DNA of 64,000 bases from a virus, in the IMG/VR virus record IMGVR_UViG_3300017987_000006, positions 114,260-178,259 of that record; one strand, 5' to 3'. This document shows, one piece after another, positions 7,553 through 60,779 of the stretch (position 1 is its first letter; the number at the start of each line of letters is the position of its first letter). The notes beneath the pieces were generated by a model. The model was not told the DNA's origin. It ran no database searches and saw only the letters and a list, made by a program, of their open reading frames with translations. A program made the translations under genes and the position numbers.

Positions 7553-7561
7553 CTTATACCG
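7553..7561 (-). promoter_or_regulatory. GGTATAAG-class promoter motif
   Basis: CGGTATAAG on minus strand; one of about 12 copies, nearly all just upstream of non-structural genes or ncRNA candidates. Confidence 0.7.
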
Positions 7562-7586
7562 ACATTTTCTAGTTTCTTTTGGCTTC

Positions 7587-7616
7587 TTGACGTTTTAGAT
7601 CTAGGGCGGTTAGGAT
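7587..7616 (+). promoter_or_regulatory. Sigma70-like promoter
   Basis: TTGACG-18 nt-TAGGAT upstream of 7649. Confidence 0.55.
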
Positions 7617-7648
7617 GTAGGGCATCGCCTCAGACCAGGAGCTTTAGA

Positions 7649-8881
7649 ATGATCAACGCCCTGCTGGATATGTACGACGACCCCTCCGGCATCGTTCTCA
7701 AAGAGAAGGTCGCTTCGCTGGAGGATGTACCGGAGTTTATCAAGCAGGCTGAGCGCCTGGACCGAGAGACGCTGGACAAGCTACCTGATGACGTCTTCGC
7801 CCTGGTCATGCTGGACAGCGGAGACAAGATGCGTAAGTACGCCTGCACCGACAAGGGAAACACCGCCCTCTCAGTGCTCTACTTCATGGAGACCAAGAAC
7901 AACCTTCCGGCGGAGGCTCAGAAGACAGCGGCGAAGAATCTGATGGAGGCCTGTCGATGGTACAGCATGGAGCCCCCCGCCGAACTTGAGAAGACCGCCC
8001 TTCTCGGCCCGGCGATGGGAGCAGTAACCCTTGGCATGGGGGCAATGGAAGGCAACCGCCGATACAAGCAGCGCAAGGCGGCGCTTCAGCAGGGTGCAAC
8101 GGGGTCGCAGATCATGAAGATGAGCGAGATGGGAGCCAACATCATGCCCAAGACCAAGGTACCTGAGAAGACGGCCTCCCTGAAGCCCCACGTCGACATC
8201 ACGGGCAAGCACCCACCGCAGCAAGTAACCCAGGAGACCGGAAGGTTCTACGCGCTCACCAAGGAGGGTGGGGCCCGATACCCAATCGACACCATGGGTC
8301 AAGTCCAGAAGGCGATCACGTATTTCGAGAAGTACGCCGAGCGCTTCACACCTCCTGATCGCCACCTCTTCTGTGCGAACGTGTCTCGGAGGGCGGACGA
8401 GCTCGGCGTACCCGTGACTGAGAAGATCGCCAAGTACGGAGCGTCCACCATGGCCCAGGATGCCCCCGTAGCGATTTATCAGCGCCAGAGGATGTTCCGT
8501 GAGGGGACCAGCGAGCACGGCCTACTGCAAGAGATGCGCGAGAAGTGTGCCTCGATCAAGCCCGAGTTCCTGGCGGTCACGCTGGAGAACTTTGATAAGC
8601 AGGCGGGGCTGGACAGGCTGTGGGACAACGGTCTGCCAGATCCGTACTACTCGATCTTCGGTGTGGAGAAGCGAGCTGAGTACAGCTTCACCACCGCGAA
8701 CGACACGATCAACGAAACACGCTTGAAACGCTGCGCCAAGGAGTGTAAGAAGCAGGTCCAAGATCTGTTCAACGAGGATGTGGCGGAGGAATTTTCCAAG
8801 GACCCGGTGCAGATTTTCGATTCCCTTCCCCTGGACCAAAAGCGTATTATCATGCGACTGGCATCCCAGGTCGAAGAATAA
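7649..8881 (+). CDS. Putative virion (head) protein with two F-A-L...K/R-Y-x modules and K-x-A sites
   Basis: LPDDVFAL...RKYAC and FYAL...RYPIDT...AITYF modules; ELEKTA, EKTAS, EKRA; first gene of the structural cluster. Confidence 0.5.
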   Translation: MINALLDMYDDPSGIVLKEKVASLEDVPEFIKQAERLDRETLDKLPDDVFALVMLDSGDKMRKYACTDKGNTALSVLYFMETKNNLPAEAQKTAAKNLMEACRWYSMEPPAELEKTALLGPAMGAVTLGMGAMEGNRRYKQRKAALQQGATGSQIMKMSEMGANIMPKTKVPEKTASLKPHVDITGKHPPQQVTQETGRFYALTKEGGARYPIDTMGQVQKAITYFEKYAERFTPPDRHLFCANVSRRADELGVPVTEKIAKYGASTMAQDAPVAIYQRQRMFREGTSEHGLLQEMREKCASIKPEFLAVTLENFDKQAGLDRLWDNGLPDPYYSIFGVEKRAEYSFTTANDTINETRLKRCAKECKKQVQDLFNEDVAEEFSKDPVQIFDSLPLDQKRIIMRLASQVEE

Positions 8882-8894
8882 AGGAGAGATCACG

Positions 8895-9641
8895 ATGACA
8901 AAAGAGAGCAAGGCATTCGGTACGCAGCGCGCCAACAAGCAGCACCTCGTGCTGGGTAAGGGCGGCGTGGCTGGTGAGGTCGCAGATCTCCGCCGCGACG
9001 TGGAAGAGGGCTTTCAGAACAACGAGGAGCGCGCGGGCTTCCCCGAGGTCGACTGGGTCGATGGCGGCGCGATGTCCGTGGACGGCGGAGACGACTTCGT
9101 CATCAAGGGATCGAACCTGCTGCAAGATCAGGAGTTCGACTCGGTGACGCTGGGCACCGGCAACGCGGCCGTCACCTTCTCGGCGTTGAAGCCGGGCGAG
9201 GGCAGCGGGCTCTCCGTAGTCATCGAGCAGGGTGTTGGGGCTCTGGCGGTCGATCTGACAGACGGGCTTCTGACCGTCACGCTCGCCGCGGCGAACAGTA
9301 CGGCCACCGAGGTAGCTGCGGCCGTCAACGCCGACTCCGATTGTATCGGGGTGATCCTGGCCGTCGCCGGTGGAACCGGTGCGGATGACGTCGTGGTAGC
9401 GACCGAGACCGAGTTGACCGGCGGCGTCGGCACCTACGCCGAGAACAAGGTCCTCATCTCTGGCGTGGAGGCGCTGCCGAAGCAGGAGGCCGACTCGTGG
9501 GGCGACGACTCGATCACCGTGAAGACGCCAGATCTGACGGCTGAGACCGATGCTCGAGCGGAGGGCGACCTGGCCACCATCCGTGTTATGGTGGACGGTA
9601 AGCTGTCGCTTCAGGCGACCATGGCGCTGGGCGCGGCATAA
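8895..9641 (+). CDS. Putative virion structural protein (beta-rich, Ig-like)
   Basis: ATG 8895 with AAGGAG; acidic Gly/Ala/Thr-rich; NSTATEVAAAVN segment resembles sheath-type insertion domains. Confidence 0.5.
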   Translation: MTKESKAFGTQRANKQHLVLGKGGVAGEVADLRRDVEEGFQNNEERAGFPEVDWVDGGAMSVDGGDDFVIKGSNLLQDQEFDSVTLGTGNAAVTFSALKPGEGSGLSVVIEQGVGALAVDLTDGLLTVTLAAANSTATEVAAAVNADSDCIGVILAVAGGTGADDVVVATETELTGGVGTYAENKVLISGVEALPKQEADSWGDDSITVKTPDLTAETDARAEGDLATIRVMVDGKLSLQATMALGAA

Positions 9642-9653
9642 CAGCGAGATCTG

Positions 9654-10460
9654 GTGTCCCGGGACTACGAAGCTGAGCTCCGGGAGGTCCTGGAAAAGAC
9701 GGGTCAGTCAGCCGGCATCACCAACACGACGGACGAGTCGGCCGAACACGTCGAAACCACGTCTCCGGAGACAGAGCACACGGAGGCGGAGAAGGTTGTT
9801 GTTACGCCCTTCTCCGCCGCCAAGCTCTTTGTGCACCACGACACACATCCTCTGGTCTTGGACATCAAGCTGATGGATCAGTATGGGCTCTCGTGGTTCG
9901 AGTGGGAGCCCACGACGTTGTGGCGAGAGATCATGGACGATTTTCGGACGCCCTCGATCTCGGACCACGTCAAGAGCAAGATCCAAGCCCTACGTACGAC
10001 GCACATCACAGATAAGGCGTTCGCGAAGTGGGAGACGTTCTCCGTCATCACGCAGGCACTGAACAACAACATTCCAGACTTCGAGATCATGCGGAGGCCC
10101 ACCATCTCCCAGCTGTTTGCGGCAGTGGACATGATGACTATGGTTCGCAACGATGTCCCGTTCAGCGAGGAGATCGAGTACTGGTGCGGGGCCGCACTGC
10201 TGGATGCGGGGGTGGTGTGTGCCCCCCAGCCCATCGCTTTCTGCCAAGACGCAATCCTGGAGATTCAGGAAGAATTGGGAGTAGAGGTTGACCCAGCTCC
10301 CGTAAAGGAGAAATATAGACTATTGCTGTCTGTCCCCGCGGAGGAGGTGGAGCTCAGGGAGAACCCGGTGGACATCCAGGTGATGAAGCTGATCATTGCC
10401 AGGGACTACCTTTCTTTGCGTCGCGGCCAGATGAAAGAACAGCTGAGGGCCCTACGATGA
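9654..10460 (+). CDS. Hypothetical phage protein
   Basis: 268 aa, GTG start, within structural operon. Confidence 0.6.
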   Translation: MSRDYEAELREVLEKTGQSAGITNTTDESAEHVETTSPETEHTEAEKVVVTPFSAAKLFVHHDTHPLVLDIKLMDQYGLSWFEWEPTTLWREIMDDFRTPSISDHVKSKIQALRTTHITDKAFAKWETFSVITQALNNNIPDFEIMRRPTISQLFAAVDMMTMVRNDVPFSEEIEYWCGAALLDAGVVCAPQPIAFCQDAILEIQEELGVEVDPAPVKEKYRLLLSVPAEEVELRENPVDIQVMKLIIARDYLSLRRGQMKEQLRALR

Positions 10461-11338
10461 ATGCATACAAGACCCTGGCCTTTGTAGACGAGCTGGAGAA
10501 GCTGGCCCTCGCACCTTCGTTGGTCCAGCGGGCCCTACGGTCTGGTGTCGGCCGTGCTGTCGTCAGCAACGTCCCGAAGGTCTGGGGCTCTGGTTTCGGG
10601 CGCGCGGCAGCGGGAGCCCTGCCTGGGGCGGCCATAGGTGCTGTGGCAGACCCGCAGGACAGTGTTCGGGGGGCAGTCCTGGGCGGTCTTGCTGGAGCTG
10701 GAGCTGGCTATGCATCACCCCTGCTCACGGCTGGGGGTCGCGCTCGTGCTAGAGAGGCCCTGAAGCAGTGGGGCAGGGAACAGAAGCACTCCTTCGTTGG
10801 TGGTGAACTCCCCATCAAAAAAAGCATGAAGCCGGAAGAAATCGCGAAACTTCGATCTGCGGAGAAGGCCGGGCTGACTAGTCTGCCGGGCGTAGTCAAG
10901 GGGATGGCAAAGAGGCCGCTACAGACGATGAAGGCTGGTTGGCAACACGCTGGAGGTCTGGGCAAGGCTATGATCGTGGGGGATGTGGCGCTGCAGGCTC
11001 CGGGCCTTGTAGACCCAACCACCCCAGAAGGAACGGGGGAGAAGGCCCTGCGGATGCTCGGAGGGACAGCAGGATTTCTTGCCGGAGGAAAGCTGCCGAT
11101 GTTGGCTAGCCTGGCCCCCATGGCCGGGCTGGCGTACCTCGGCGGGAAGGCTGGTCGCGGGATCGATGTGTTGACAGGCGAGAGAGCAAAGAAAAAGAAG
11201 ATGATGACTGCGGCGCAGCAGGCCGAAGCCGACAAGTTTTTGCGGGTCAGGCCTACTACTGCTCTCGCTCAGCGGGAGGCGCGGAAACTCGTCCCGGCCG
11301 GGTACATCCCGGCTGGGTACGGACCGGGGGTTGTCTGA
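10457..11338 (+). CDS. Putative internal virion protein (AFVDELEKLA motif, glycine zippers)
   Basis: N-terminal LAFVDELEKLA; GAxxGAxxG hydrophobic repeats; basic. Confidence 0.55.
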   Translation: MNAYKTLAFVDELEKLALAPSLVQRALRSGVGRAVVSNVPKVWGSGFGRAAAGALPGAAIGAVADPQDSVRGAVLGGLAGAGAGYASPLLTAGGRARAREALKQWGREQKHSFVGGELPIKKSMKPEEIAKLRSAEKAGLTSLPGVVKGMAKRPLQTMKAGWQHAGGLGKAMIVGDVALQAPGLVDPTTPEGTGEKALRMLGGTAGFLAGGKLPMLASLAPMAGLAYLGGKAGRGIDVLTGERAKKKKMMTAAQQAEADKFLRVRPTTALAQREARKLVPAGYIPAGYGPGVV

Positions 11339-14300
11339 TGGACCTCGGAACAGTTGGCGCTACACGCTTCTCCAGATCTCGCGGCAGGATAACTGGATCT
11401 GGAACCAGCGGCATCAGCTATCCGAGCCCGTTCTTCGATATCGGGCATACGTACCTGCCCACCACCGTCAAGCAGATGTTCAGGTGGTGTCGGTACTACT
11501 TTTTAGTTCACCCGCTGATCAACTCGATCATCTTCAAGATGGCCCAGTATCCGATCACGGACCTGGTCTATCACACCGACGATCCGCACTTGAAGGACCG
11601 GTGGAGGGAGATCTTCGAGGACGTTCTCAAGTACCGCTGCTTCCAGATGGAGATCGGTCTCGACTTCAACACGTACGGCAACGGGTTTGTCTCAATGTTC
11701 TTTCCGTTCCGGAAGATCATTGAGTGCACGAACTGTCATAACAGCGAGGCCGCAAAGGACGCCAGGTACTACTTCCGCAACTTCCAGTTCTATTGGAAGT
11801 GCCCACGCTGTGGGCACCACGGGCCGACCAAGGTCTATGATCGGTACATCAAGTCGACGCGGGGAATCCGCCTCTTGAGGTGGAACCCGGAGGACATCGA
11901 CGTTCGATACAACGATCTGAACGGCCAGTACACCTACTTCTACGACATTCCCGTGAAGTTGAAGAACGACATCATCATGGGGCGGAGACATATCGTGGAG
12001 GAGGTGCCGCAGGTCTTCATCGAAGCGCTTCGACGGAAGAAGGCTATCGTCTTCAACAACGACAACATCTACCACTTCCGACGCCCGACACTGGCTGGCA
12101 AAGATCGAGGGTGGGGAATCCCATTGATCTTGCCGGTGCTGAAGGACGCCTTCTACCTGCAAATACTGAAAAAATCTCAAGAATGTGTGTCTTTAACCAG
12201 CGAGCTGGAGACATCGGGCGGGCTGGTGCAGGCGGACGATGTTAGGGTTGGGGACCTCGTGAGAACTCATACGGGCGCGTGGAAATCCGTGGAGAAGAAG
12301 TGGTATCGGGACGCCCGAGAAGAAGAGGTCGGCAGGAAGATCACTCTCACGAGTCTTCGTGGGTATCCGACAACGTATTCTCCACAACATCCAATCTTTA
12401 CGATCCGCAGAAACGGGATTAATAGACGGACGGACACGAGAGAAGCTCCACGCTCCTCAATAATTTTGAGCAGGCCGCATCTTTATGAGGAGGTCCTTTG
12501 TCCGGCAGAGTAGTTGGGTATCGGGGAGTACGTCCTCTATCCGCGGTATCTCCCCGTGCAGGAGACAACCTACGTTGACGTTGCTTTAAGGACCGGGTTG
12601 GTGAGTACTGACGGGTTCGTCTATAGTGGGTGCTGTGAGGACACCGCTGTCGCTTTCGAATCTTTGGAGCGGGGAGAAAGGGTACCACACGACAACCCGG
12701 GGCGAGTAGCGAAGAGGGCGATTCGTGATGGGCGCACTCCGAAGAGAATGCCCAGGATCATTCCCATGACGGACGACCTGGCTTACATCCTCGGTTGGTA
12801 TGCTGGTGATGGGAGCTGCAATGCCAGAAGTGTATTTTTCAGCCTTGGGAAAGGGGATGATTCCCTTTCTCTCATCGGGGCTATTCAGCGAGAGTTCGGG
12901 GTTACACCCACCGTGGAGGAGGGAAAATCTGTGAACACGGTGGTACTGTCCGACGTCATCGTACGTCATTTGATCAAGGGCCTAGTACCCGGGACAGCTC
13001 GACATAAAAAAGCCCCAGAAGAGGTGCTCAACGCCCCAAACAGCATGAAACTTTCATACCTGCGTGGGTTGTGGGAGGCAGACGGGTCAGCAGGCGAAAA
13101 GAGTATATGCATCACCTCCACCAGTCGAAACCAAGCATATGACGTATATAGGATCGCGATCCATGTTGGCTGTATCGCTTCCATCGGAAAATCGAAGCCG
13201 AGCGTTAGCGTAATTGATGGAAGAGAGGTACGAAGCAAAGGATCGTACAATGTGACCGTATGCAATGCGTCGGCCGATCGTCTGCGTTCTTTGTGGGAGT
13301 GCGGGGAGGGCCCTGATATTACATCAGGGAAAAGCGGGTTCTTTTGGGGTGACTACTTTGCCACCAGGATCTGCGCAATTGAAGAGGTTGAGGAGGCACA
13401 GTATATAGACTTCAAGGTAGCCGATGACACCACGTTCTGTGTCCCGGGTACGGCCACAAAGAATAGCATTGCGCTCGATCATATCGTCCCACTTCGCGTG
13501 ATGTTCCCGCAGACCGGCTCGGCAACCGCCGACCCATTCTCGATGGTCAACCTCTCGGAATGGAAAGATCAAATCGCTGAGGAGATTCAGCGTTGGAGGC
13601 TCGATAATAACTACATTCCGATCCTCCCGCTCCCCATCGGTAATCAGACCATCGGAGGCGATGGTCGGGCGTTGTTGCTCGGGCAAGAGATCAGAGTGTG
13701 GTCGGAGCAGATCGTCACCGGGCTGGGGATCCCAATCGAGCTCATCTTCGGCGGCCTGTCCTACAGCGGTAGCAATGTATCGCTGCGTATGCTCGAGAAC
13801 ATGTTCATCAACTATATGCACGATCATATCGACCTGACGAAGTGGGTGGTGCGTAAGATCTCTTCTTACATGGACTGGCCATCGATAACGATCAAGTTCA
13901 AGCCGTTCAAGATGGCGGACGACTTGCAGCGTAAGGCGTTCAACCTGCAGCTCTCCCAGGTCGGAAAAATCTCTGACGATTCCCTGCTGTCTGATGCAGA
14001 TTTCGATCCGGACCACGAGGACAAACAGATCGAGAACGAGACCAACCGGCGAGCGGAGGCACAGAAAAAGGCCAGGCTGGCGCAGGCCGAGATCGAAGGC
14101 GCGAGTCAAATGATCATGATGCGCTATCAGATGAAGGCGCAGCAAGAACAGATGCAGATGCAGATGCAGGGAGCTCCGGCTCCCGGGGAGCCGGGAGCAG
14201 AGGCGCACGGCGTCGCGGAGGAGAGTGGGATGCAGCCGCAGCAGCCCCCGCCAGAGCAAGGTGGACCTGGGACTGCTCCGCTTCCTCAACAGATGATGGC

Positions 14301-14652
14301 TGCGCAGGCGCTGCCACCAATTCCGGCCCAGGCCCGCGCCGAGCTACCGCCAGCAATGTCGGAGATGGAGTCACCGCTGAACATGGCGCAGCAAGTGGGT
14401 CAGGTTAATCAAGACCAGGCTGGCCAGATGAACGTGGATCTCATAGCGCAAGCTCAGATGGTGGCGGGGCAGCTGATGCGGATGGACGAGAACAGCCGGA
14501 CGATGGTGCTGATGAACTTGAGACAGCAGTCGCCTGAGTTCTACCAGGTCGTGTTGGGGCTAATGCAGAGCATGGTGGCCGGCGGCCCCACCGCAGAACC
14601 GCCGCCCGAGCAGCAGGCTCCACAGCGGGGCCGCGAGGCCGCCGCAGTCTAG
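11338..14652 (+). CDS. Portal protein with LAGLIDADG intein; in-frame TAG at 12511-12513 inside the intein
   Basis: ORFs 11338-12513 and 12514-14652 are in one frame; portal-like segments (RLLRWNPEDI, IYHFRRPTLAG..GWGIPLI, IALDHIVPLR, GIPIELIFGG); Q/M/P-rich tail. Confidence 0.75.
12184..13464 (+). mobile_element. Intein with homing endonuclease in portal gene
   Basis: Starts CVSLTSEL, block B YSPQHPIF, LGWYAGDGS and LRGLWEADGS motifs, ends TATKN then Ser+1; codon usage differs from flanks. Confidence 0.85.
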
Positions 14653-15191: not shown

Positions 15192-15297
15192 CCTGGTCCT
15201 CCTTCGCCTTCTTTAGTTTTCTGACGACGCTTCTCAGCGTTTCATGGAGTGCCATGAGAAGACCCACAACAAAACCACTTTCGAACATCTCTCGCAT
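15142..15297 (-). CDS. Small basic hypothetical protein (51 aa)
   Basis: Manual translation MREMFESGFVVGLLMAL...RYMRK; start overlaps upstream stop. Confidence 0.35.
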   Translation of the reverse strand: MREMFESGFVVGLLMALHETLRSVVRKLKKAKEDQDGKRTRRKPKLRYMRK

Positions 15298-15428
15298 CAG
15301 TCATCCTCGTCGTCTGCATCTTCATTCTTGTCTTCGTCATCTTCGGCCTGCCCGCTATTCGGATCTAGCGCATCATCCAACCAGTCCTCCGCCTCTTTGA
15401 GCTGTGATTGATCTTCGTCTTCGGGCAT
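15297..15428 (-). CDS. Very acidic 43-aa peptide
   Basis: AGGAG RBS; MPEDEDQSQLKEAEDWLDDALDPNSGQAEDDEDKNEDADDEDD; promoter motif 40 nt upstream. Confidence 0.55.
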   Translation of the reverse strand: MPEDEDQSQLKEAEDWLDDALDPNSGQAEDDEDKNEDADDEDD

Positions 15429-15467: not shown

Positions 15468-15476
15468 CTTATATCG
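15468..15476 (-). promoter_or_regulatory. GGTATAAG-class promoter variant (CGATATAAG)
   Basis: Back-to-back with the RNAP sigma70 promoter. Confidence 0.5.
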
Positions 15477-15491: not shown

Positions 15492-15520
15492 TTGACTCGC
15501 AAAATGTGGGCTGCTATGAT
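15492..15520 (+). promoter_or_regulatory. Sigma70-like promoter of the RNAP gene
   Basis: TTGACT-17 nt-TATGAT with extended -10 TG. Confidence 0.75.
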
Positions 15521-25226: not shown

Positions 25227-25255
25227 GTGACAAACCGGCGCGGAAGTTGTAGACT
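25227..25255 (+). promoter_or_regulatory. Sigma70-like promoter
   Basis: GTGACA-17 nt-TAGACT upstream of 25277. Confidence 0.55.
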
Positions 25256-29032: not shown

Positions 29033-29041
29033 CTTATACCG
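29033..29041 (-). promoter_or_regulatory. GGTATAAG-class promoter motif
   Basis: CGGTATAAG pointing into the 28.7-29.0 kb intergenic region. Confidence 0.65.
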
Positions 29042-31364: not shown

Positions 31365-31408
31365 GCCTCTTCTCCTTGTTAAAGTTTTGGGATTCCCAGA
31401 CACTATTC

Positions 31409-32185
31409 TTATCCCAGTTTTTTGATCCGATTTGCACCAGATGGGTGTTGGATCTCAGAGGCGATGTAGCGATCTAGGGAATCCTCGGACTCTCCGAAGG
31501 AGGCGATGTGGCGCATTCGTACTGGCCCCACCCTTGCTGCGTGATTCTCCGATAGGATGAGCGCTGCTCTGGACAGGCTCTTGCGAGCTTTCTCAAGTAC
31601 GCGGTACGCCTGCTGCTGCTCTGGGTTGCCGGAGAAACCCTTGCGGCGGCGGAGGGCGGACATGAGGCCCAGGCAGAGCTCGTGGAATGGGTGCCACGGC
31701 TCGTGGTCCTGGGTGGGGCCGACCATCCTCTCCAACTCTATCTCGCTGAGCTGCAGAAAGACGTCTGCCCAGTCCCGCATCTTATCAAGGGGGACCTGCG
31801 TTAGATCTATGTCGAGATAGTCCGCGGCCTCATCGTACAATTCTATCAGCTCAGCTGTGCTGGAATCACGAAGCCCGGAAACATTCAAATCGGCTACGCG
31901 CATGAGGAAGTCTAGCCGGTCTTCCATGCTCTGGAGTTTGACCTTTACTCCGTGAAGTAGATCCCACAGATCGGATAAGTTGAGCTTTTTCTGGCCCGCT
32001 TCTTTGAGAGCGCGCAGGTCTGCCTTTCTGATCCACCACTTTTTGCCGTGGCCTCTGATCTTGCGTACTCTCAAAATGCCTGCCGAGATGTAGTTCTCGA
32101 CAGTCCTGGTGGTCTTGTTCAAGAACTTGGCGGAATCGACCACAGTCAAGTACTCTTGGACACTTCCCATCGGTTTCCTCCACAT
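31409..32185 (-). CDS. Helix-turn-helix DNA-binding protein (excisionase/MerR-like N-terminus)
   Basis: YLTVVDSAKFLNKTTRTVENYISAGILRVRK...WWIRKADL. Confidence 0.7.
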   Translation of the reverse strand: MWRKPMGSVQEYLTVVDSAKFLNKTTRTVENYISAGILRVRKIRGHGKKWWIRKADLRALKEAGQKKLNLSDLWDLLHGVKVKLQSMEDRLDFLMRVADLNVSGLRDSSTAELIELYDEAADYLDIDLTQVPLDKMRDWADVFLQLSEIELERMVGPTQDHEPWHPFHELCLGLMSALRRRKGFSGNPEQQQAYRVLEKARKSLSRAALILSENHAARVGPVRMRHIASFGESEDSLDRYIASEIQHPSGANRIKKLG

Positions 32186-32228: not shown

Positions 32229-32257
32229 TTGACCGATCTGTTTTTGGGGCGTAGTAT
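32229..32257 (+). promoter_or_regulatory. Sigma70-like promoter of the head/tail operon
   Basis: TTGACC-17 nt-TAGTAT upstream of 32278. Confidence 0.7.
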
Positions 32258-41158: not shown

Positions 41159-41159
41159 G

Positions 41160-50600: not shown

Positions 50601-51346
50601 ACGACAGCTACTACAGCTCGTCCAACCTTTCCTCCTCGCTGATCTCGGAGTCCTTCTCCATCAAGATCCGCGGCGCGGAGCTGCTGACCTCGGAGAACCT
50701 ACCGGATTACGCGGCCATTGCCTCGACCTACGCCGACCTGGGCACCGCCTACGGCGATCGACGAGTGTACATGACCGCTCCGGATCAGGCCGGAGCCACC
50801 ATCGATGGGCTCGAGCAGCTGATCGATGCGTTCTACGTGAACGCGGCCATCGCAGGCATGATCGGGCAGCAGCCTCCGCAGCAGGGATTCACCAACTTCC
50901 CGATCTCCGGGTTCACACGCATTGTAGGGTCGAACGACAAGTTCAGCGAGACCCAGATGAACGTGGGTGCGGGCGGCGGCACCTACTGGATCATCCAGGA
51001 GGTGGTCAACGGACCCCTGACGTGCCGTCACCAGTTGTCTACTGACACGAGCTCCATCGAGAAGCGGGAGCTGTCGATCACCAAGGTGGTGGACTACGTC
51101 GCGAAGTTCATGCGGGCAGGCCTGCGTAACTTCATCGGCAAGTTCAACATCACCCAGGGCTTCCTGGACACCCTATCGACCGTCATCCAGGGGCAGTTGA
51201 CCTTCTTGACGGAGAACGGAGTGATCATCGGTGGGGACCTGAACAACATCGTCCAGGACACCACTGAGCCTGACACGGTGCTGATCGATGTCACGTTGGA
51301 TGTCCCCTATCCGTGCAACTACATCAGGCTCGTGTTGACCATTTGA
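47636..51346 (+). CDS. Contractile tail sheath protein with large insertion domains
   Basis: ATG 47636 with GAGGAG; C-terminal sheath motifs TCRHQLSTD...RELSITKVVDYVAK, DVPYPCNYI; acidic. Confidence 0.85.
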   Translation: MANEELLRPGMSVIQQFRTITPTIVQPTLVPCVVGPCFQVVEALETDATGNSVVNTDAVPSVPPIITSISAEDYTGLDGLTLKVSVNNGPEQEVTLSDPTAAGLTADQVKSQILATSGISGWAAYTVTRGSSTYLQLRGNNSGDGQSLQILDGTANAQLGLPDFFEATGFSSYAQDKRFIAQDNFPDPRDNMDELDIDEDSIRVFINTGSALQEVKRDETFLRNGWTAWILGTAISFQTSSLKDKDLEVTFAVGGTEQTITFDGDYQAVDGTLVVPAGVYADPGTDTIDIQKNSDTAVTVTFASPADIDAAVTAINAAWAATYTGEDVCYRADADGSANPAGTYIAFQVGGATATGDYVKVIEPGSGDAFSDIGFTSAQGAVGSSLVYFINTTLSSPTDYPAAVDGGSDKLKLYSYDGYIKVGDGDANATLGLTDDEVQYALEGVDDGDGDSTSPIVRIHNEDFTLDPTSASLTGTGDLSGDNQVHKLTFQLAIDGEPMQEVEFNGGPIVPANPYADPGTDSLGLIVNGTPVVVTFASPADIDAAVTAINTATSPVVVAYRSLSTGVADAAGTYIAFQVGGSTDAGGSIIIDYSASTGNAWTDIGFTGTSDIYQTLTSAEIETAIENTMGTGTAAISSDNLVLSSAETGVESKIEIGQGTANTLLGFTSGYVTNGRGFKPKAGDYLYADGELLGIIAQVSPGAVATDLRLDRELTYTTLLKKNWYIQAKNIADPQPADRPTPDLVVDLAGDITIKHDILRDTRGDAVELASDQLIVAYDALRLDVTPKADNPALLTFEGTDELETSLEPLNTDNPLGLGLFFALLNAPGVTVSGIGVSATSADSPNGTLAAYTEAATFLESQEVYAIAPLTHDGDIHSMWQTHVNNMSDPDARGERIVVINPEMPDRNLDTLVASGTDADSTGVTNELDTKLSNLAALLLAAGVDPTGTIEVDDGVYLDIASDSSKYSISAVSGTKITIRVTFAPGENDDSYYSSSNLSSSLISESFSIKIRGAELLTSENLPDYAAIASTYADLGTAYGDRRVYMTAPDQAGATIDGLEQLIDAFYVNAAIAGMIGQQPPQQGFTNFPISGFTRIVGSNDKFSETQMNVGAGGGTYWIIQEVVNGPLTCRHQLSTDTSSIEKRELSITKVVDYVAKFMRAGLRNFIGKFNITQGFLDTLSTVIQGQLTFLTENGVIIGGDLNNIVQDTTEPDTVLIDVTLDVPYPCNYIRLVLTI

Positions 51347-52894: not shown

Positions 52895-53410
52895 CTAGCG
52901 GCCTTTTTTCGTCCAGTTGAACGCGTCTGTGATGGACGAAGGAAGGTCAGACTGCAGATCAGATGGTCCGGCAGGGTACAAGCCTTCACTATCTTCTTGC
53001 CCACTTTCAACTTCATCAAGTACGGGCAATCGTTCACTGTCGGCTGCCGGCACATGCTCATGGGCTCCTCCGTGGTCTTCGTACTGGATCGTGATGTCAT
53101 CCAGCATCTCCTCATCTGGTGTGGACAAACTGTGGATAGGTTTCCGGCCGGATAAGATCTGTGCAGCCAGCTCTTGGTGCTCTGGTGTTGCCCAAGAGGC
53201 ATGTAAGGCTTCAGCAAGCACGGATAGATCTGTGCCAAAGGTATCGAGGTAAAGCGACCGATGCCGGGATGGTGATTTGTTCACAGACTTATCCCCAGGT
53301 ACATTGACGATGAGTGGAGGGCATGGAGGAAGCGGAGCTCCCACCACTTCATCGTGGCGGAGCGGCGGGTCCTCCACGTCATACGGCGCTGGGTATTTAA
53401 ATCGTGGCAT
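52895..53410 (-). CDS. Hypothetical acidic protein
   Basis: 171 aa, ATG, overlaps RHH gene end. Confidence 0.55.
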   Translation of the reverse strand: MPRFKYPAPYDVEDPPLRHDEVVGAPLPPCPPLIVNVPGDKSVNKSPSRHRSLYLDTFGTDLSVLAEALHASWATPEHQELAAQILSGRKPIHSLSTPDEEMLDDITIQYEDHGGAHEHVPAADSERLPVLDEVESGQEDSEGLYPAGPSDLQSDLPSSITDAFNWTKKGR

Positions 53411-53588
53411 GCCAAACCCTCGCGAGCTCTTCTTCGTAGTCCATTTGTCGCTGGATCAGGGCGCGGATGATGTCCGAGCACCCAATGTTTTCCCGAAACT
53501 TTTGAGACATCATATTACACTTCTTGTAGAGGAACTCACGTTGTTCTTTCCGCATGCGGACAGTGATCGTACAAACCTTGTTCTTCAT
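53397..53588 (-). CDS. Ribbon-helix-helix (CopG/Arc-like) DNA-binding protein
   Basis: TITVRMRKEQREFL...CSDIIRALI; ATG 53588 with GAGG. Confidence 0.7.
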   Translation of the reverse strand: MKNKVCTITVRMRKEQREFLYKKCNMMSQKFRENIGCSDIIRALIQRQMDYEEELARVWHATI

Positions 53589-53610
53589 GTAGATTTCCTC
53601 GTTCACAGCT

Positions 53611-53715
53611 AAAAAGTGATCGGGGAGGTTGCCCAGAAAGGAGATTGATCCCCGATCACTAACTTCCGCAGGGGGGCCGTGCTTGGGGGGGAGCAAGCAG
53701 GCCCACTGCTTCCGT
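53611..53715 (-). ncRNA. Candidate small RNA or attenuator leader
   Basis: Promoter motif 53723-53731; two hairpins, the second a perfect 12-bp stem AGTGATCGGGGA/TCCCCGATCACT followed by U tract. Confidence 0.45.
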
Positions 53716-53757
53716 CACCTTTCTTATACCATAACGATCGCCGGTTTTTAAGGTTCG

Positions 53758-53786
53758 TTGACCGCTTCCAAACAGCGCGTTATGCT
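53758..53786 (+). promoter_or_regulatory. Sigma70-like promoter
   Basis: TTGACC-17 nt-TATGCT upstream of lipoprotein gene. Confidence 0.65.
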
Positions 53787-53828: not shown

Positions 53829-54398
53829 ATGAAACGCTTTTTGATCACGATGATGGTGGGCGTCTGTCTGGGGATGATGCTCCCCGGCTTGACGGCTTGC
53901 CCAAACCCAGAGACCGGAAAGATCGATCCATACCTCACAGCACGAACCATCATCCTACAAGCAAACACAGCTCTCGGACTCGCAGACGGAATCTTCGGCC
54001 AGTGGTACCTGGGCAAGATGCTCACCGACCAAGACATCGCGAACAAAACAAAATTGATCTATGAGAAAACCAAAACCGGGGTGGCCAACGGGCTACAGAT
54101 CGCTTTGAACGGAGTGGCTATCGCTGAGCAGGCCAAGAAAGATCCGAACATCCAGCTACTGATGGGAGAAGCCGACAAAGCCTGGCAGAACCTACGCAAG
54201 TTCTTGACAGATCTACTGGCAAAACAGGAGGACGCGAAGCTGGTCACACTGGCCGACGCACCAAAGAAAGAGCCTCCTACATCTGCACCAGTCACTAAGG
54301 ACGATCCAAAAGCGCCACCGAAAGTGGCTGTCAAAACGTCGGCCATCACGGTGAAGGTCGACGCCCTCAAGAACCTCCCAAAGACCCTCTTGCCATAG
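53829..54398 (+). CDS. Lipoprotein
   Basis: MKRFLITMMVGVCLGMMLPGLTA-C: basic n-region, hydrophobic h-region, LTAC lipobox; AAGGAG RBS. Confidence 0.75.
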   Translation: MKRFLITMMVGVCLGMMLPGLTACPNPETGKIDPYLTARTIILQANTALGLADGIFGQWYLGKMLTDQDIANKTKLIYEKTKTGVANGLQIALNGVAIAEQAKKDPNIQLLMGEADKAWQNLRKFLTDLLAKQEDAKLVTLADAPKKEPPTSAPVTKDDPKAPPKVAVKTSAITVKVDALKNLPKTLLP

Positions 54399-54426: not shown

Positions 54427-54633
54427 TCAACCGACGTACTGACGGTCGATCTCTTCGATCTGTCGATCTATAGTTTCAATCTCATCAACCTCTCGTTCTA
54501 AGTCTCTGATCTCCCTGAGGACGCGCTTCCTTAATCTTTGGCCGATTTCTTGTCCACAATCATCGAGAAAGATTTTGGACTGTTCGATCATTTCTTGTAG
54601 CACAGAAACAACGCCGTTGAGTCTCTCGCTCAT
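54427..54633 (-). CDS. Small coiled-coil hypothetical protein
   Basis: GAGGAG RBS; GGGTATAAG at 54662-54670. Confidence 0.65.
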   Translation of the reverse strand: MSERLNGVVSVLQEMIEQSKIFLDDCGQEIGQRLRKRVLREIRDLEREVDEIETIDRQIEEIDRQYVG

Positions 54634-54789
54634 TTAGATCTCCTCTCTGGTTTGTACAATTCTTATACCCAGAAGAGGGATCAATTTCAGTGAGCTAAGA
54701 AAGGCCCCCGCAACGGTGTGCCTGCTCCGCGGCAGGGGCCTTAGAGAATCAAAGGTACCAACTCTAATCCTCCAAAGCCCTTATACCGC

Positions 54790-55320
54790 TTACGTGTCGT
54801 CCTCTTGCATCTGGGCCGGGGGCTGCTGCGCGTTCCTCTTGATTATGGACCAGCTCTTGGGACGCTTGAACGATCTCGGCAAACGCTTGGGAGGCGGAGA
54901 AGCCGTAGGAGGGGCCGGTGCGGGCTCGAGCTTCTCCAGCTTCTTCTCGAACTTCTTCGTCAGTTCCTCGATGGTCCTGGATGTTCCTGAACCAGATGTC
55001 GCCCGGCGGGAGGCAAGAGCGAACCCAATGAAGAGCGCACGCACGCTGTCGGCATCTGCCTTGGCCGCGTTCAGCTCATTGCGAAACCGGAACTCGAGGT
55101 TACCCAGCTGCCTGTTGAAGTGATCTTCGATCTTCCCCAGGTCCCTGTTCAGATCATCCAGCTTCTTGACGAGCTCCTGGTGAGCAGCCCTGGACGCCTT
55201 CTCTGGGGCCTTTGATCGTGTCTCGATCAACGCCGTCACTGAGGCGATCAATGCTGCCAGCCCGCCCAGGAACGATCCAATCTGGACCCACTTTGACTTA
55301 GGTTTTCCGTTGATCGTCAT
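54790..55320 (-). CDS. Membrane-anchored coiled-coil protein
   Basis: ATG 55320 with AGGAGG; TM WVQIGSFLGGLAALIASVTALI, heptads, Pro-rich linker. Confidence 0.65.
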   Translation of the reverse strand: MTINGKPKSKWVQIGSFLGGLAALIASVTALIETRSKAPEKASRAAHQELVKKLDDLNRDLGKIEDHFNRQLGNLEFRFRNELNAAKADADSVRALFIGFALASRRATSGSGTSRTIEELTKKFEKKLEKLEPAPAPPTASPPPKRLPRSFKRPKSWSIIKRNAQQPPAQMQEDDT

Positions 55321-55417
55321 GTAAACCTCCTGAATCCTGAGATTATCGATGATCAACTGGACGATCAACTATTTTTTGGTCAGCCGGAGGGCCAGGCCCC
55401 TATGTTCTGGGAGGCGG

Positions 55418-55572: not shown

Positions 55573-55797
55573 TTATTGATCTACCTCTATCCTTCTCAGG
55601 ACGTGGTAGATCGCATCGAGGTCTTTTCCATTGATCGGCCAGTCTAACTTCCCCAGGAACTCCGCGGCCCGTTCATCGGGTCTGACCTGCAGGGTGCGCT
55701 TCCCAGGTATTTTCAACAGCAGGGTTCCGTCACCCATGTCCTTTACCCAGGCCCCCAGGCGGCGTGCGTTCTGCATGAACTCCTTATTGATGCTCAT
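55573..55797 (-). CDS. Small hypothetical protein
   Basis: AGGAG RBS; CGGTATAAG at 55825-55833; 10-bp hairpin CCCCCACCCC/GGGGTGGGGG downstream. Confidence 0.65.
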   Translation of the reverse strand: MSINKEFMQNARRLGAWVKDMGDGTLLLKIPGKRTLQVRPDERAAEFLGKLDWPINGKDLDAIYHVLRRIEVDQ

Positions 55798-55919
55798 TTG
55801 ATCTCCTTTTTGGGTTGTACTTTTCTTATACCGATTTATGAGGAAATTCGGATCAGATCGTGGTATAGGATCTCTGCTTTCGTTGGGGAATTACCCCCGA
55901 CACAACATAGGAGGAAGAA

Positions 55920-56120
55920 GTGGCCAAGAAGAAGCAGAAAGAGATCCCAGCACTGGTGCGCGTCAGCAGCATGAAGGAGTACATCAAGGGGGCGGCGGAC
56001 GTGAACGTGTCCGGAGAGCTCGTCGAGGCGGTGAACGGGAAGCTGGCAGAGGTGCTTGCGGATGCCGTAGATCGGTGCCTTGGAAACAACCGCAAGACCG
56101 TTCGTCCGGTGGACCTGTAG
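55920..56120 (+). CDS. Bacterial-type histone-fold protein (66 aa)
   Basis: LVRVSSMKEYIK / VNVS / GELVEAVNGKLAEVLADAVDRC / RKTVRPVDL; AGGAGG RBS before GTG. Confidence 0.85.
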   Translation: MAKKKQKEIPALVRVSSMKEYIKGAADVNVSGELVEAVNGKLAEVLADAVDRCLGNNRKTVRPVDL

Positions 56121-56161: not shown

Positions 56162-56464
56162 ATGGATTTAGTAACCATCACCTCTATGCTCGATGAGCTG
56201 GAGAAGATTGCTATCTCTGGCCAGGTGCCCCGGGCACCCAAAGCGCCCAAGACTTCAGCACCACCTCCCCCGCCTGCTGCCCGCATGGCTCCCACGAAGA
56301 TGCCAAACCCGCCGTCGTTTGCTCCTCCAGCTCTTCCGCACTCCGGCGTTCCGGGGCAGCGGCATAGCGCGCTGGCGACGCAGAACACCCTCGGGAAACG
56401 TCTTCCACCAATCGATCCACGCGCGGCCGCGACGATGGTGAGGTATAAGGCCCCGGTTTACTAG
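56162..56464 (+). CDS. Small DELEKI-motif, Pro-rich protein
   Basis: MDLVTITSMLDELEKIA. Confidence 0.6.
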   Translation: MDLVTITSMLDELEKIAISGQVPRAPKAPKTSAPPPPPAARMAPTKMPNPPSFAPPALPHSGVPGQRHSALATQNTLGKRLPPIDPRAAATMVRYKAPVY

Positions 56465-56479
56465 GCCCAGGAGAACAAC

Positions 56480-57067
56480 ATGAAACCGCTATTCATCGTC
56501 CTGGAAGGGACAGATGGCGCTGGGAGCACGACCGCGTCGAAGCTCCTGGTCCAGACTTTGAACGACAAAGGCATCGAGTCCGTGTGGACAAAGGAGCCCT
56601 CAGACGGAACGATCGGAAGACACATCAGGAGAATCTTGAAGGGCGAGGAGATCGCAGATGAGGCGTCGATGTTTCCCATGTTCATGGCAGACCGCCACGA
56701 CCACATCGGAAATTTCATCCGCCCGGAGCTGGAACAGGGCAACACGGTGGTGTGTGATCGGTATGCCTACAGCACGTGGGTTTACCAGCAGGACAACTAC
56801 GGGATGGATGTGATTGAATTGATGCAGCGTCGCTGCCTACCGCCAAACTACACCTTCGTTCTGGAGTGTCCGGTGGAGGAGTGCATGAGGCGCATGGAGG
56901 GAAGGGACGTGATCGAGCGTTACGAGATCGAGGAGAAGCAACGGGAGTATGCCAAGCGCTACAAGCGTGTTCCTCCCATCGGATCTGAGCAGATCATTCA
57001 CCTGGACAGCTACGACTTGAACCCAGCTCAAATCGTGGACAAGATCCGCCGGGAGATCGGCTTGTGA
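56480..57067 (+). CDS. tmk: Thymidylate kinase
   Basis: VLEGTDGAGSTT P-loop, TKEP, FMADR, CDRYAYS motifs. Confidence 0.9.
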   Translation: MKPLFIVLEGTDGAGSTTASKLLVQTLNDKGIESVWTKEPSDGTIGRHIRRILKGEEIADEASMFPMFMADRHDHIGNFIRPELEQGNTVVCDRYAYSTWVYQQDNYGMDVIELMQRRCLPPNYTFVLECPVEECMRRMEGRDVIERYEIEEKQREYAKRYKRVPPIGSEQIIHLDSYDLNPAQIVDKIRREIGL

Positions 57068-58147: not shown

Positions 58148-58510
58148 CTAGTACGTGATGTACAATTCAATCGATGAGCGGATAATCCTGATCAACTCAT
58201 TGCGACACATGGGCGCGCGTTTCCTTAGTATCTGATCTACTTTCTTGTCGGTCGCACATAGGTAGATGCCCGGCTCCTCGCGTGTTCTCCAGAAGTAGGA
58301 CAGGGAGATCCCGCCATGGTACTGGTCTGGTCCGTCTACGATTACGATTACCCTCCCGAACTTCTTGCGGTACCAGGCCGCCGCGATGAAGACTTCCCCG
58401 CCCGTGTTGATTTCACAGGCCAGTGTTGGCCAGGGCCCGTGACAGGTGTGCAGCCAGTTCAAACGCCCGCCTCTTGGAACGCCGTTAATCTCCTTGATCG
58501 TCGTTGGCAT
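58148..58510 (-). CDS. Hypothetical protein
   Basis: ATG 58510 overlapping upstream gene end. Confidence 0.45.
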   Translation of the reverse strand: MPTTIKEINGVPRGGRLNWLHTCHGPWPTLACEINTGGEVFIAAAWYRKKFGRVIVIVDGPDQYHGGISLSYFWRTREEPGIYLCATDKKVDQILRKRAPMCRNELIRIIRSSIELYITY

Positions 58511-58799
58511 TGAGGTGCTCCTCGATGGCGTTCTTCTCTTCGTCCGTCGCCGCCAAAAGCTCGGCGAGCTTGAGTATGCAGGCGTGGTCACCAGCAGCAG
58601 CGCCTTTGGCGATCTCTGCGGCGATCATGGACTGCGCCTCCCAGGCACGAATATCAGATCTGGAGAAGATCCCTTTTTGGTGGAGTAGGTTGATGAGCGA
58701 GACGATCTGGCCGGAGACGATGGCACCCTTTTCTAGTTCGCGTTGCTCTTCGGCTTCCATGATCTCTTGGAAGTCCTGTCTGAGCTGATCATTTTCCAC
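58485..58799 (-). CDS. Hypothetical protein (104 aa)
   Basis: GTG 58799 with AAGGAG; CGGTATAAG at 58822-58830. Confidence 0.6.
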   Translation of the reverse strand: MENDQLRQDFQEIMEAEEQRELEKGAIVSGQIVSLINLLHQKGIFSRSDIRAWEAQSMIAAEIAKGAAAGDHACILKLAELLAATDEEKNAIEEHLNANDDQGD

Positions 58800-58914
58800 G
58801 TAAACTCCTTTCGTTGAATAGCTTATACCGAATTCTCGACGATTTGTGTTGACAATAACTCTGAGTGTGATCTTCTTCGAAAGATCGCTCAAGCCAAAAA
58901 ACGGAGGTAACAGA

Positions 58915-59406
58915 ATGAATATCAAACTGACAAAGATCGAGATGAAGATTCTTGCCGCCCTGAAGGGCGGGAAGAACAACGCCCGCGGCATTTCCGCCCT
59001 CGTCTTCGGCAAGAAGGAGGAGAATATCAAGCAGGGAGAGGTAAGGGACGTGCGCAACGGCCTGCGGAAGATCGTCAACCGACGGCTGGTGGACAATGCG
59101 GAGCGGGGTATGTACGCGCTGACCGCGACCGGAAAGAAAGCCGCCAAGTCCGGAGCCGGCGTTGTCGAGGCTATCAGTAAGACCACCAAGTCCAAGTCCA
59201 AGAAGACCACCAAGTCCAAGTCCAAGGCTAAGGCCAAGACCAAGACCGCCAAGAAGGCCAAGACCGCCATCGAGGTGGTGGACAAGACCACCAGCAAGCC
59301 TGCAGCCAAGAAGGCGAATGGTAACGGGAACGGGACCGCCCGCAAGGGGATGCCGACCTTCAAGCGGCGCAACCTCTCCAAGCCCTACACGAGGCAGGGG
59401 CAGTAG
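58915..59406 (+). CDS. Winged-helix protein with Lys/Ala/Ser/Thr-rich tail (linker histone H1-like architecture)
   Basis: LTKIEMKILAAL...VRNGLRKIVNRRLV..AERGMYALT wHTH pattern, then KTTKSKSK x2, KAKAKTKTAKKAK; GGAGG RBS; TTGACA at 58849. Confidence 0.7.
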   Translation: MNIKLTKIEMKILAALKGGKNNARGISALVFGKKEENIKQGEVRDVRNGLRKIVNRRLVDNAERGMYALTATGKKAAKSGAGVVEAISKTTKSKSKKTTKSKSKAKAKTKTAKKAKTAIEVVDKTTSKPAAKKANGNGNGTARKGMPTFKRRNLSKPYTRQGQ

Positions 59407-59655
59407 ATGCCGGACTGCATCGGTCGGGCCGCCAGGGACTTCTTCCAGCTGTCGATCTACGATGCGCAGAACGATCACGTGGTGACGCTGCAGCTGAAGC
59501 GACACAGCGGAATGACCCCTGGAGATCTGGCCCAGCTCCAAAACTTCCTGTGGTGTCAGATCGGGCAGGCCATTCGAGATGATGCAGATCTCAGGCGCAG
59601 GCTGGAGATCGGTGGAGTTCGGGTGCTGTTGAACGCCCCGGAACGTGGTAACTAG
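59407..59655 (+). CDS. Hypothetical protein
   Basis: 82 aa, abuts upstream stop. Confidence 0.5.
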   Translation: MPDCIGRAARDFFQLSIYDAQNDHVVTLQLKRHSGMTPGDLAQLQNFLWCQIGQAIRDDADLRRRLEIGGVRVLLNAPERGN

Positions 59656-59663
59656 GGTGCAGT

Positions 59664-60239
59664 ATGTGGTTGGCCGTTGTGCTGAAGCTGTTCATGCCCG
59701 GGTCGGAGCAGTACGCCGCGGACATTGAAAAACAGGCCAAACGTTACAAGTTTGATCCACTCCTCGTTGCGGCTGTGGTCTTCAAAGAGTCGGGATTCAA
59801 GAAGGACTCCTGTTACAAGGGATCGCACGGGTTGATGCAAATCCAACTCCGCCCAAGATCATGTGAGGGATCGATGGCCCGGGCCATAGAGTTGGGTTTG
59901 TATCAACCGTCCAAGAACATCGAGCGTGGTGTGCGGATGATGGCGACGTGGCGCAGGTGGTGGCGCAAGTACCACAAGGACGATGGGTACCACTGGTTGC
60001 TACACTACAACCGCGGATTTGGATCGTGTCCTGATGGGAAGAAGTACTGTCCGACTGTTGAGAGAAGGCCCACTTCCGCGGGAAGCGGGTATGCAGACAG
60101 GGTGTTGAAAATATATCGCAGGCTAAAGAAGATCAGGGTCAGGCCCTCGCCGACCCGAAGGCCGGCGAGGGATTTGGGAGGCGTTGTGGACGCTACTTCT
60201 TCGCTTTCAGTTTCTCGGCGATGTCGGGGTTCTGCTTGA
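59664..60239 (+). CDS. Lytic transglycosylase (SLT domain)
   Basis: LVAAVVFKESGF (catalytic Glu), GLMQI, NIERG, HYNRG. Confidence 0.85.
   Translation: MWLAVVLKLFMPGSEQYAADIEKQAKRYKFDPLLVAAVVFKESGFKKDSCYKGSHGLMQIQLRPRSCEGSMARAIELGLYQPSKNIERGVRMMATWRRWWRKYHKDDGYHWLLHYNRGFGSCPDGKKYCPTVERRPTSAGSGYADRVLKIYRRLKKIRVRPSPTRRPARDLGGVVDATSSLSVSRRCRGSA
60144..60171 (-). terminator. c(UUCG)g hairpin downstream of minus-strand gene 60193-60684
   Basis: CCCTCGCCGGCC-TTCG-GGTCGGCGAGGG on minus strand. Confidence 0.55.
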
Positions 60240-60684
60240 TGAACTCTCGCCTGTCAAAGGCAGGCGTGAAGTACCCGTCCTCCCAGACGTCGTACTTGAC
60301 TGGTACCGACTCGCCGATCTTGAAAACGCGTCGACCTAGGTTGACCGCCTCATTCTTGGCAGTCTTGCTGATCTTCTTCGGGTCGTGCACCTCGACCGAC
60401 AAGTCGTTGATCCTGATGGATTTGCGCCGGCCGTCGATGTCGAGGAAGTGGACCACCGCCATGAGCTTGTCGGGGAAGTCGTTGATCTTTCGTTTGAGAC
60501 CGAACATGTTCACCTCCTGGGCGCGGATGCCTGCCTTATATTCCCAGGAATGCCCTACGATCTCGCATGCCTGTGCAATCGTTCCGAGGTGTTTGATCTC
60601 CTTTCCTTTGAGAACCTTGTTTCTTTCGGTGTGAACATCGTCGGTGTCGATCGCGGCCATGTGTTGCTTGTTCAAAATTGCCAC
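60193..60684 (-). CDS. Hypothetical protein
   Basis: GTG with AGGAGG; CGGTATAAG at 60742-60750. Confidence 0.65.
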   Translation of the reverse strand: MAILNKQHMAAIDTDDVHTERNKVLKGKEIKHLGTIAQACEIVGHSWEYKAGIRAQEVNMFGLKRKINDFPDKLMAVVHFLDIDGRRKSIRINDLSVEVHDPKKISKTAKNEAVNLGRRVFKIGESVPVKYDVWEDGYFTPAFDRREFIKQNPDIAEKLKAKK

Positions 60685-60779
60685 TGTGTCCTCCTTTTGC
60701 GGTGTTCAAAAACAAACTGCGTGTGATTCCGGAACATGATCCTTATACCGATCAAATTGCAGAAATTCGGAGGTGAGAA

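Follow-up and report, generated by a model that had tools for sequence, protein, structure and literature searches.

The virion enzyme of coliphage N4 is a T7-like single-subunit polymerase which uses hairpin promoters, with the host polymerase serving the late genes. To our knowledge, the multisubunit polymerases described from phages (phiKZ, AR9, crAss-like phages and P23-45) are all very divergent, and the phages that carry them have no recognisable sigma factor. In Thermus phage P23-45 the virion polymerase, which is fused to the tape measure protein, acts first and the host polymerase late (PMC10770324), the phiKZ/AR9-type enzymes consist of 4-5 very divergent subunits in phages without a recognisable sigma factor, and a 2021 survey of jumbo phages reported that phages have a polymerase or a sigma factor, never both (PMC7824862). 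Among bacterial promoters, those of sigma-28 combine (-36)TCTAAAG(-30) with (-15)GCCGATAA(-8) (PMC12784957). Here we examine the final 64 kb (64,000 nucleotides, nt; "the window") of a complete 178,259-base-pair (bp) virus record, IMG/VR IMGVR_UViG_3300017987_000006 (57% G+C), in which an 8-nt box, GGTATAAG, stands before non-virion genes. We refer to the box and its one-mismatch variants as class A. GGTATAAG appears to form the almost unvarying -10-like core of a promoter in two parts, with a purine start about 7 nt downstream, and class A would be a set of promoters specific to the phage, serving a polymerase that the phage itself encodes along with a genuine sigma-family partner.

Two promoter-like classes and their placement

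The window holds nine exact copies of GGTATAAG where 0.45 would be expected, and none of 100 shuffled sequences reached nine. Eight of these are on the minus strand and one is on the plus strand, and three further sites differ from the box at one position, all retaining T or C followed by A or G downstream. Across the whole genome GGTATAAG is the most enriched intergenic 8-mer: 12 of its 13 copies are intergenic, all 13 are oriented toward a gene or a short structured RNA, and the minus strand, home to just 23% of the genes, accounts for ten of them (P = 7e-5). Nine class A sites in the window lie 22-58 nt before start codons, whilst the sites at 29033, 53723 and 54780 have structured non-coding RNA downstream. 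The class A sites of the window are:

7553..7560, minus strand: GGTATAAG core opening a long replication block, first gene 7174-7515, then ResIII/DEAD and DnaB-like helicases
15468..15475, minus strand: variant GATATAAG before small gene 15297-15428, back-to-back with the putative promoter of the RNA polymerase gene
29033..29040, minus strand: GGTATAAG, then a structured non-coding region (~28682-29026) beside the terminase gene, fold z = -2.0
31408..31415, minus strand: variant GGGATAAG, 44 nt before gene 30990-31364, retaining T-1/G+1
53723..53730, minus strand: GGTATAAG, then a ~105-nt RNA with a 12-bp hairpin and UUUUU end, fold z = -3.0; next gene 53397-53588
54662..54669, minus strand: GGTATAAG, 29 nt before gene 54427-54633
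54780..54787, minus strand: GGTATAAG, then a ~75-100-nt structured RNA (54670-54773) with a terminator-like hairpin and U-tract
55825..55832, minus strand: GGTATAAG, 28 nt before gene 55573-55797
55862..55869, plus strand: variant GGTATAGG, 51 nt before a 66-amino-acid histone-like gene (55920-56120), divergent from 55825, retaining T-1/G+1; the least certain member of the class
56442..56449, plus strand: GGTATAAG, 31 nt before the thymidylate kinase gene 56480-57067 (Pfam Thymidylate_kin, 133 bits)
58822..58829, minus strand: GGTATAAG, 22 nt before the GTG start of open reading frame (ORF) 58485-58799, a frame that matches the ORF list
60742..60749, minus strand: GGTATAAG, 58 nt before gene 60193-60684

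A sequence-only reading of the window, made by a model from the letters and a list of ORFs, had named these sites, with spacings of 23-58 nt to minus-strand genes or with candidate non-coding RNAs behind them; all the sites were recovered, with the two plus-strand ones moved by one position (given there as 56441 and 55861).

Aligned on the box, class A sites share one layout in the four genomes that we analysed fully (the studied phage, Salmonella phage Arash, Vibrio phage D181 and a 149-kb relative, G001, which is 85% complete). An A-tract at -32 to -29 is followed, after about 14 nt, by (t/c)GGTATAAG with the box at -14 to -7, and then by a pyrimidine at -1 and a purine at +1 (Y-1/R+1). Counted from the end of the box, this step comes at bases six and seven; the studied phage has it in 12/13 sites, Arash in 30/31, D181 in 17/18 and G001 in 9/12, where chance would give ~25%. 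Relative to the purine start, as placed from the box-aligned sites, TATAAG occupies -12 to -7; the TATAA core is invariant, with A at -11 and a fixed distance to the putative start, as in the -10 element of sigma70-family promoters. The frequency of A at -32 is 0.55-0.93 across the four genomes, each position of the tract (-32 to -29) carrying ~0.3-0.9 bit, and because this second element stands at a fixed distance upstream of (t/c)GGTATAAG, class A has the form of a two-part sigma70-family promoter. It departs from the canonical primary-sigma pattern: -15 is C or T and -14 is G, position -7 is always G, and the aligned sites contain neither TTGACA at -36 to -31 nor a TG extended -10. The sequence-only reading had likewise seen no TTGACA-like -35, a remark that stands once the distinct A-rich element at -32 to -29 is added to it. 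Primary sigma binds T at -7 in a pocket (PMC7598289), and the invariant G which replaces it argues against host sigma70 reading class A.

The RNAs behind the 53723 and 54780 sites both close with a hairpin plus U-tract, the latter folding at z = -3.1 with none of 200 shuffles folding equally well. Rfam and tRNA scans of the window gave no match, so that none of the RNAs after 29033, 53723 and 54780 falls into a known family. The promoter-to-terminator units at 53589-53716 and 54670-54773 (both minus strand) are candidate phage small RNAs or attenuators. PHROGs and Pfam gave no name for any small gene behind class A sites, and named few genes of the virion block.

A second class has the form TTGACn-N17/18-TAnnnT and was scored with a sigma70 matrix at a threshold of 10.5. 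The density of high scorers is 9-11 times greater between genes than within coding DNA, and of the 12 sites that precede a gene in their own direction, 11 are plus-strand sites in front of virion-block operons, those with the polymerase and sigma genes among them. These eleven score at least 10.5, lie 6-86 nt before the start codon and agree with canonical sigma70 promoters in sequence; G001 has the same pattern, and the two classes are split by strand in the studied genome (Fisher P = 5e-4). A plain genome-wide count of TTGAC...TAnnnT shows no excess (10 versus 11 in shuffles), so the case for this class comes from its intergenic concentration and its conservation. The sites that concern the window are:

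7587..7616, plus strand: TTGACG-18-TAGGAT, score 11.3, before gene 7649-8881, the first of the block leading to the portal
15492..15520, plus strand: TTGACT-17-TATGAT, score 15.3, the genome's best, before the RNA polymerase gene; conserved in relatives
25227..25255, plus strand: GTGACA-17-TAGACT, weaker, score < 10.5, before gene 25277-27283
32229..32257, plus strand: TTGACC-17-TAGTAT, score 13.3, before the operon for head and tail genes (32278 onward)
53758..53786, plus strand: TTGACC-17-TATGCT, score 12.2, before gene 53829-54398, back-to-back with class A 53723
55340..55368, minus strand: TTGATC-17-TAATCT, score 10.7, before gene 54790-55320; an exception to the strand rule

Of the five plus-strand sites that had been proposed as canonical, four hold and 25227 is weaker, having GTGACA in place of TTGACn; the proposed division of the two classes by gene module is upheld by the Fisher test on strand, with the minus-strand site at 55340 an exception.

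The plus strand of the window is a virion module, and the minus strand carries the helicases and small genes without known function. The principal genes of the module are:

11338-14652, plus strand: portal region, assigned through synteny with Arash
15548-23248, plus strand: single-chain bacterial-type beta-beta' RNA polymerase of 2566 amino acids with a LAGLIDADG intein, directly after the portal region
29114-30937, plus strand: terminase
39147-40274, plus strand: major capsid protein
47636-51346, plus strand: sheath-like protein of 1236 amino acids, in the head and tail operon

Three large genes bear self-splicing or homing modules: besides the polymerase gene (15548-23248), these are the helicase at 5229-7091 (minus strand), with a HINT domain, and the ORF at 12766-14652 (plus strand), which has a LAGLIDADG domain and whose homologue in Arash belongs to the portal region. 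The record ends in a 123-bp terminal repeat, which is an assembly overlap; the ORF at 61957-64000 (plus strand) exits the record end and resumes at genome position 3 across this repeat, and the record is therefore a circularly closed assembly. Elsewhere, genome positions 1-39361 (plus strand) hold ~85 small genes, with class A only at 6908 and 34499, one sigma70-like site at 13393 and no other shared motif seen in the block.

The polymerase, the sigma factor and the box in relatives

The polymerase gene matches Pfam Rpb2_6 (209 bits), Rpb1 domains 2, 3 and 5, Intein_splicing and LAGLIDADG_3, and its product is 27-30% identical to bacterial RpoB/RpoC. The beta subunit is single-copy, and neither an alpha nor an omega subunit was detected in the genome. 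The gene has the portal on one side and further virion genes on the other, both in the studied phage and in Arash. A sigma gene lies outside the window, at about 62322/62370-63113 of the genome, and is the orthologue of Arash gp10, annotated as a sigma factor (30% identity, E = 1e-19). Its product matches Pfam Sigma70_r3 above the cut-off and r2 and r4 weakly, and its profile matches solved sigma factors over regions 2-4 (E = 6e-11); the best NCBIfam match of Arash gp10 is FliA/WhiG. The family comprises 70 metagenomic clusters on contigs of up to ~180 kb, a related-locus search with the sigma factor returned no loci, and the gene was found in G001, Arash and D181, so that all four fully analysed genomes encode beta/beta' and a FliA-like sigma factor.

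Two observations bear on a possible place of these proteins in the virion. The N-terminus of the sigma family carries a conserved leader, (L/M)EK(E)(A/G), present in the studied clade as E(L/M)EK, like the F-x-D-E-L-E-K-x-A found at the N-terminus of at least nine virion-block proteins (e.g. window 10457-11338, 23258-23638 and 36853-37104), and of 17 occurrences of E[LMI]EK, 11 lie no further than residue 45. In purified Arash virions, mass spectrometry recorded 3516 spectra for beta, the highest of all proteins, 1210 for beta' and 467 for gp10 (PMC10585845).

Megablast of 20 kb against a phage collection gave no match. Protein searches led to Arash and to the Vibrio phages D181, D148 and D69, with ~30% identity in polymerase and terminase; Arash has only 15 proteins in common with the studied genome (E < 1e-5). 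Across this distance the box persists. Arash contains 31 copies of GGTATAAG, 30 of them on the non-structural strand, where control words number 2-3 per strand, and its box extends to GGTATAAG-taaagTGtaa. In D181 the top upstream 8-mer is GTTATAAG, which occurs 18 times; 17 of these copies lie between genes and 17 share a strand. Among closer relatives (11 in IMG/VR at 53-74% identity), five contigs together hold 24 copies of GGTATAAG versus 7 of the controls, and in G001 the box heads intergenic regions, those of two orthologous genes included; GGTATAAG lies 53 nt before the orthologue of the gene behind the 7553 site. For the region ahead of the polymerase gene, an alignment of seven genomes (A1) shows the complement of the box, CTTATA(T/A/C)C, kept in 6/7 relatives, together with a -35 of TTGAC/TTGCC and a -10 of TAnTCT that are kept as the spacers diverge. 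Because Arash, D181 and the IMG/VR relatives retain box, polymerase and sigma factor yet infect different hosts, the specificity for GGTATAAG is supported as being the phage's and not the host's, and because the distant relatives on Salmonella and Vibrio keep the same word, the box is in all likelihood a promoter, probably for the phage polymerase and sigma factor. The Arash paper mentions no promoters (PMC10585845; genome OQ632216), and in the papers searched we found neither a description of GGTATAAG as a promoter in phages nor any work on transcription in Arash. The sole plus-strand GGTATAAG of Arash (L008:11588-11595) lies 4 nt before the gp9 ATG, just upstream of the sigma gene gp10, and may give a leaderless or self-driven sigma transcript.

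The virion genes of Arash and D181 are preceded by another shared box, CTAAAATA (CTAAAATAtag), which has no -35, often abuts the complement of class A and resembles a late promoter; the studied genome has one copy only, at 89260. In both phages the sigma70-like sites are mostly on the non-structural strand, and those of Arash cluster in a region of tRNAs and small genes.

The studied genome also encodes, outside the window at 8461-9810 (plus strand), a 449-amino-acid protein whose residues ~197-328 are ~60% identical to RpoD region 3.2-4.2 (PDB 7ye1_F at 87 bits; Pfam Sigma70_r4 at 63 bits); the parts on either side of this region gave no match. Arash, D181 and G001 lack the protein, and a single similar one, with region 4 alone, was found; a role as decoy towards the beta flap, -35 DNA or an anti-sigma is conceivable. 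We rejected it as the -35 reader of the TTGAC class, as G001 has that class without the protein in its 85%-complete sequence, and as a clue to the host, since ~60% identity to the primary sigmas of many Pseudomonadota and Deltaproteobacteria is uninformative.

A candidate phage holoenzyme and its alternatives

We propose that class A drives the non-virion genes, which comprise the replication helicases, thymidylate kinase and numerous small genes, as well as several short RNAs that end in terminators, and that it would be read by a holoenzyme of the FliA-like sigma factor and the phage's single-chain beta-beta' polymerase, with the sigma factor probably supplying the specificity. Polymerase and sigma factor would be delivered in the virion and class A transcribed early, and the virion operons, including the genes for these two proteins, would be read by the host primary-sigma holoenzyme through TTGACn-N17/18-TAnnnT. 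That the sigma factor and phage core read class A we consider probable, and the explanation as a whole, with a phage holoenzyme on class A and host-type promoters on the virion operons, we rate as rather probable. The arrival of both proteins inside the virion and their early action is for us an even question, and on the reading of the virion operons by host polymerase we incline to neither side. The Arash proteomics, the sigma leader and the joint inheritance of box, sigma factor and polymerase speak for a phage holoenzyme, possibly injected with the DNA, on class A.

The sequence-only reading had proposed that a packaged phage polymerase reads the box as an early promoter and that host polymerase makes the late messages, an order which is plausible and partly supported. 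Its first half fits a box that is phage-specific and kept with the polymerase, and is amended by the FliA-like sigma factor which the lineage encodes. For its second half, the conserved sigma70-like promoter before the polymerase gene speaks in favour and the CTAAAATAtag boxes of Arash and D181 against.

Several observations weigh against our proposal. The virion genes of Arash and D181 use CTAAAATAtag and their sigma70-like sites lie mostly on the opposite, non-structural strand; because of this, host transcription of late genes fails as a rule across the lineage, and we infer that host sigma70 for the virion operons would be a property of the studied clade at most. The 1-39 kb block, with two class A sites and one sigma70-like site, leaves part of the programme unexplained. 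Every curated sigma subfamily score is far below its cut-off, and Arash gp10 is without the N-terminal leader. The list of Arash virion proteins runs to 116 and includes ribonucleotide reductases and helicases, so that carry-over of abundant proteins is possible, as its authors allow (PMC10585845).

A different partner for the sigma factor is the first alternative: it would redirect the host core to GGTATAAG, and the phage polymerase would read something else or work without sigma. SPO1 gp28, T4 gp55 and phiEco32 gp36 redirect the host core polymerase in this manner. Most known phage sigma-family proteins do act on the host core (PMC7598289, PMC7824862), the sigma factor here is recognisably bacterial in type, and the phage enzyme has no alpha or omega that we could find. 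However, sigma factor, polymerase and box are inherited together in 4/4 fully analysed genomes despite different hosts and 30% identity, a sigma factor constrained to match the cores of unrelated hosts would have less room for divergence, sigma factor and polymerase were detected together in Arash virions, and the studied genome shows no third promoter class for the phage polymerase. We consider this alternative rather unlikely.

The order of events could instead be T7-like, with the host polymerase acting first on the sigma70-like promoters, a newly made phage holoenzyme then reading GGTATAAG as a middle class, and the virion polymerase being carry-over. The polymerase and sigma genes stand behind sigma70-like promoters, the sigma70-like sites of Arash cluster in a tRNA and small-gene region that looks early, and metabolic enzymes appear in the long list of proteins detected by mass spectrometry in Arash. 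It would mean, however, that portal, capsid and tail operons are switched on ahead of the replication genes, and it sits poorly with beta having the highest spectral count among Arash virion proteins, with a sigma leader common to virion-block proteins in the clade, and with the polymerase gene lying amongst virion genes in both phages. We hold it to be unlikely.

Far less probable is that the unaided host primary-sigma holoenzyme reads both classes, GGTATAAG being a strong -10 variant: TATAA fits 5/6 of the -10 positions and is spaced from the putative start as in sigma70 promoters, but the pocket T at -7 is replaced by an invariant G, the -35 and TG elements are missing, and the same 8-mer is fixed in Salmonella and Vibrio phages and in a phage of 57% G+C, whereas host promoters are degenerate. 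That the box is no promoter at all, but an operator for a phage DNA-binding protein or a signal for RNA processing or stability, agrees with its strict orientation and 5' location, as expected of an RNA element too, yet is scarcely credible given its conserved partners at fixed distances on both sides (the A-tract at -32 and Y/R at +1), its place at the head of almost all minus-strand blocks, where no further promoter precedes it, and its occurrence before stand-alone hairpin-terminator units.

Returning to the phage holoenzyme on class A, we suggest tentatively, and with more doubt than its parts, that a widespread lineage of ~170-190 kb phages may carry a portable, virion-packed and almost complete transcription system of bacterial type, a beta-beta' polymerase in one chain or two genes with a FliA-like sigma factor and without alpha, which would start infection from sigma-28-like GGTATAAG promoters across host genera and leave only the virion genes to host polymerase or to a second phage-specified route. 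If true, a packaged phage system would act first, the reverse of the usual host-first order, and for no phage multisubunit polymerase before it would the use of a true sigma70-family factor have been shown. The sequence here lets one recognise an enzyme of bacterial type, a member of the sigma70 family and a candidate for their cognate promoter, and with Arash in culture on Salmonella, recognition of G at -7 by a sigma factor, a core without alpha and one promoter across hosts become testable questions. The box is also a practical marker of transcription units in an uncultured lineage, and box, polymerase and sigma factor are a possible orthogonal set.

Comparison with described transcription systems

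The nearest relatives, Arash and D181/D148/D69, are like the studied phage in polymerase, sigma factor, terminase, the synteny of portal and polymerase, and G(G/T)TATAAG on the non-structural strand. They are unlike it in that the Arash polymerase is encoded by separate beta and beta' genes, that ~15 proteins are in common, and that the virion genes of Arash and D181 bear CTAAAATAtag and not TTGAC-type promoters.

N4 and P23-45 offer an analogy for the proposed programme, as an injected phage enzyme starts it and the virion genes have host-type promoters, but neither enzyme uses a sigma factor. The early promoters of phiKZ and AR9 are closer to class A in form: by the published definition they are an AT-rich box of ~10 nt at -10 before early operons (PMC7598289), and class A is likewise a short conserved AT-rich box near -10 before non-structural operons, in a lineage whose multisubunit-type polymerase was detected in the virions of Arash. 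The resemblance ends with the enzyme. The studied phage has one bacterial-like chain with a sigma70-family partner, a single polymerase set and a 178-kb genome, in place of a split, sigma-less virion polymerase accompanied by a second, non-virion one.

Sigma-28 (FliA/WhiG, group 3) promoters are alike in register, with an A-rich -35, a G/C-rich extended -10 and A-11, T-10, A-9 and A-8, and the phage sigma factor has regions 2, 3 and 4, its nearest curated family (through Arash gp10) being FliA/WhiG. Class A differs in having T and not G at -12, GG and not CC at -14/-13, and a conserved G at -7; set against GCCGATAA, its cGGTATAA(G) has in common only ATAA and the G/C-rich extension, the sigma factor scores far below curated cut-offs, and the phage probably provides the core enzyme itself. 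Class A thus looks, from its sequence, like a promoter which works in the manner of sigma-28 promoters but is not one of them, and none of the three systems, sigma-28, phiKZ/AR9 or N4/P23-45, fits it as a family.

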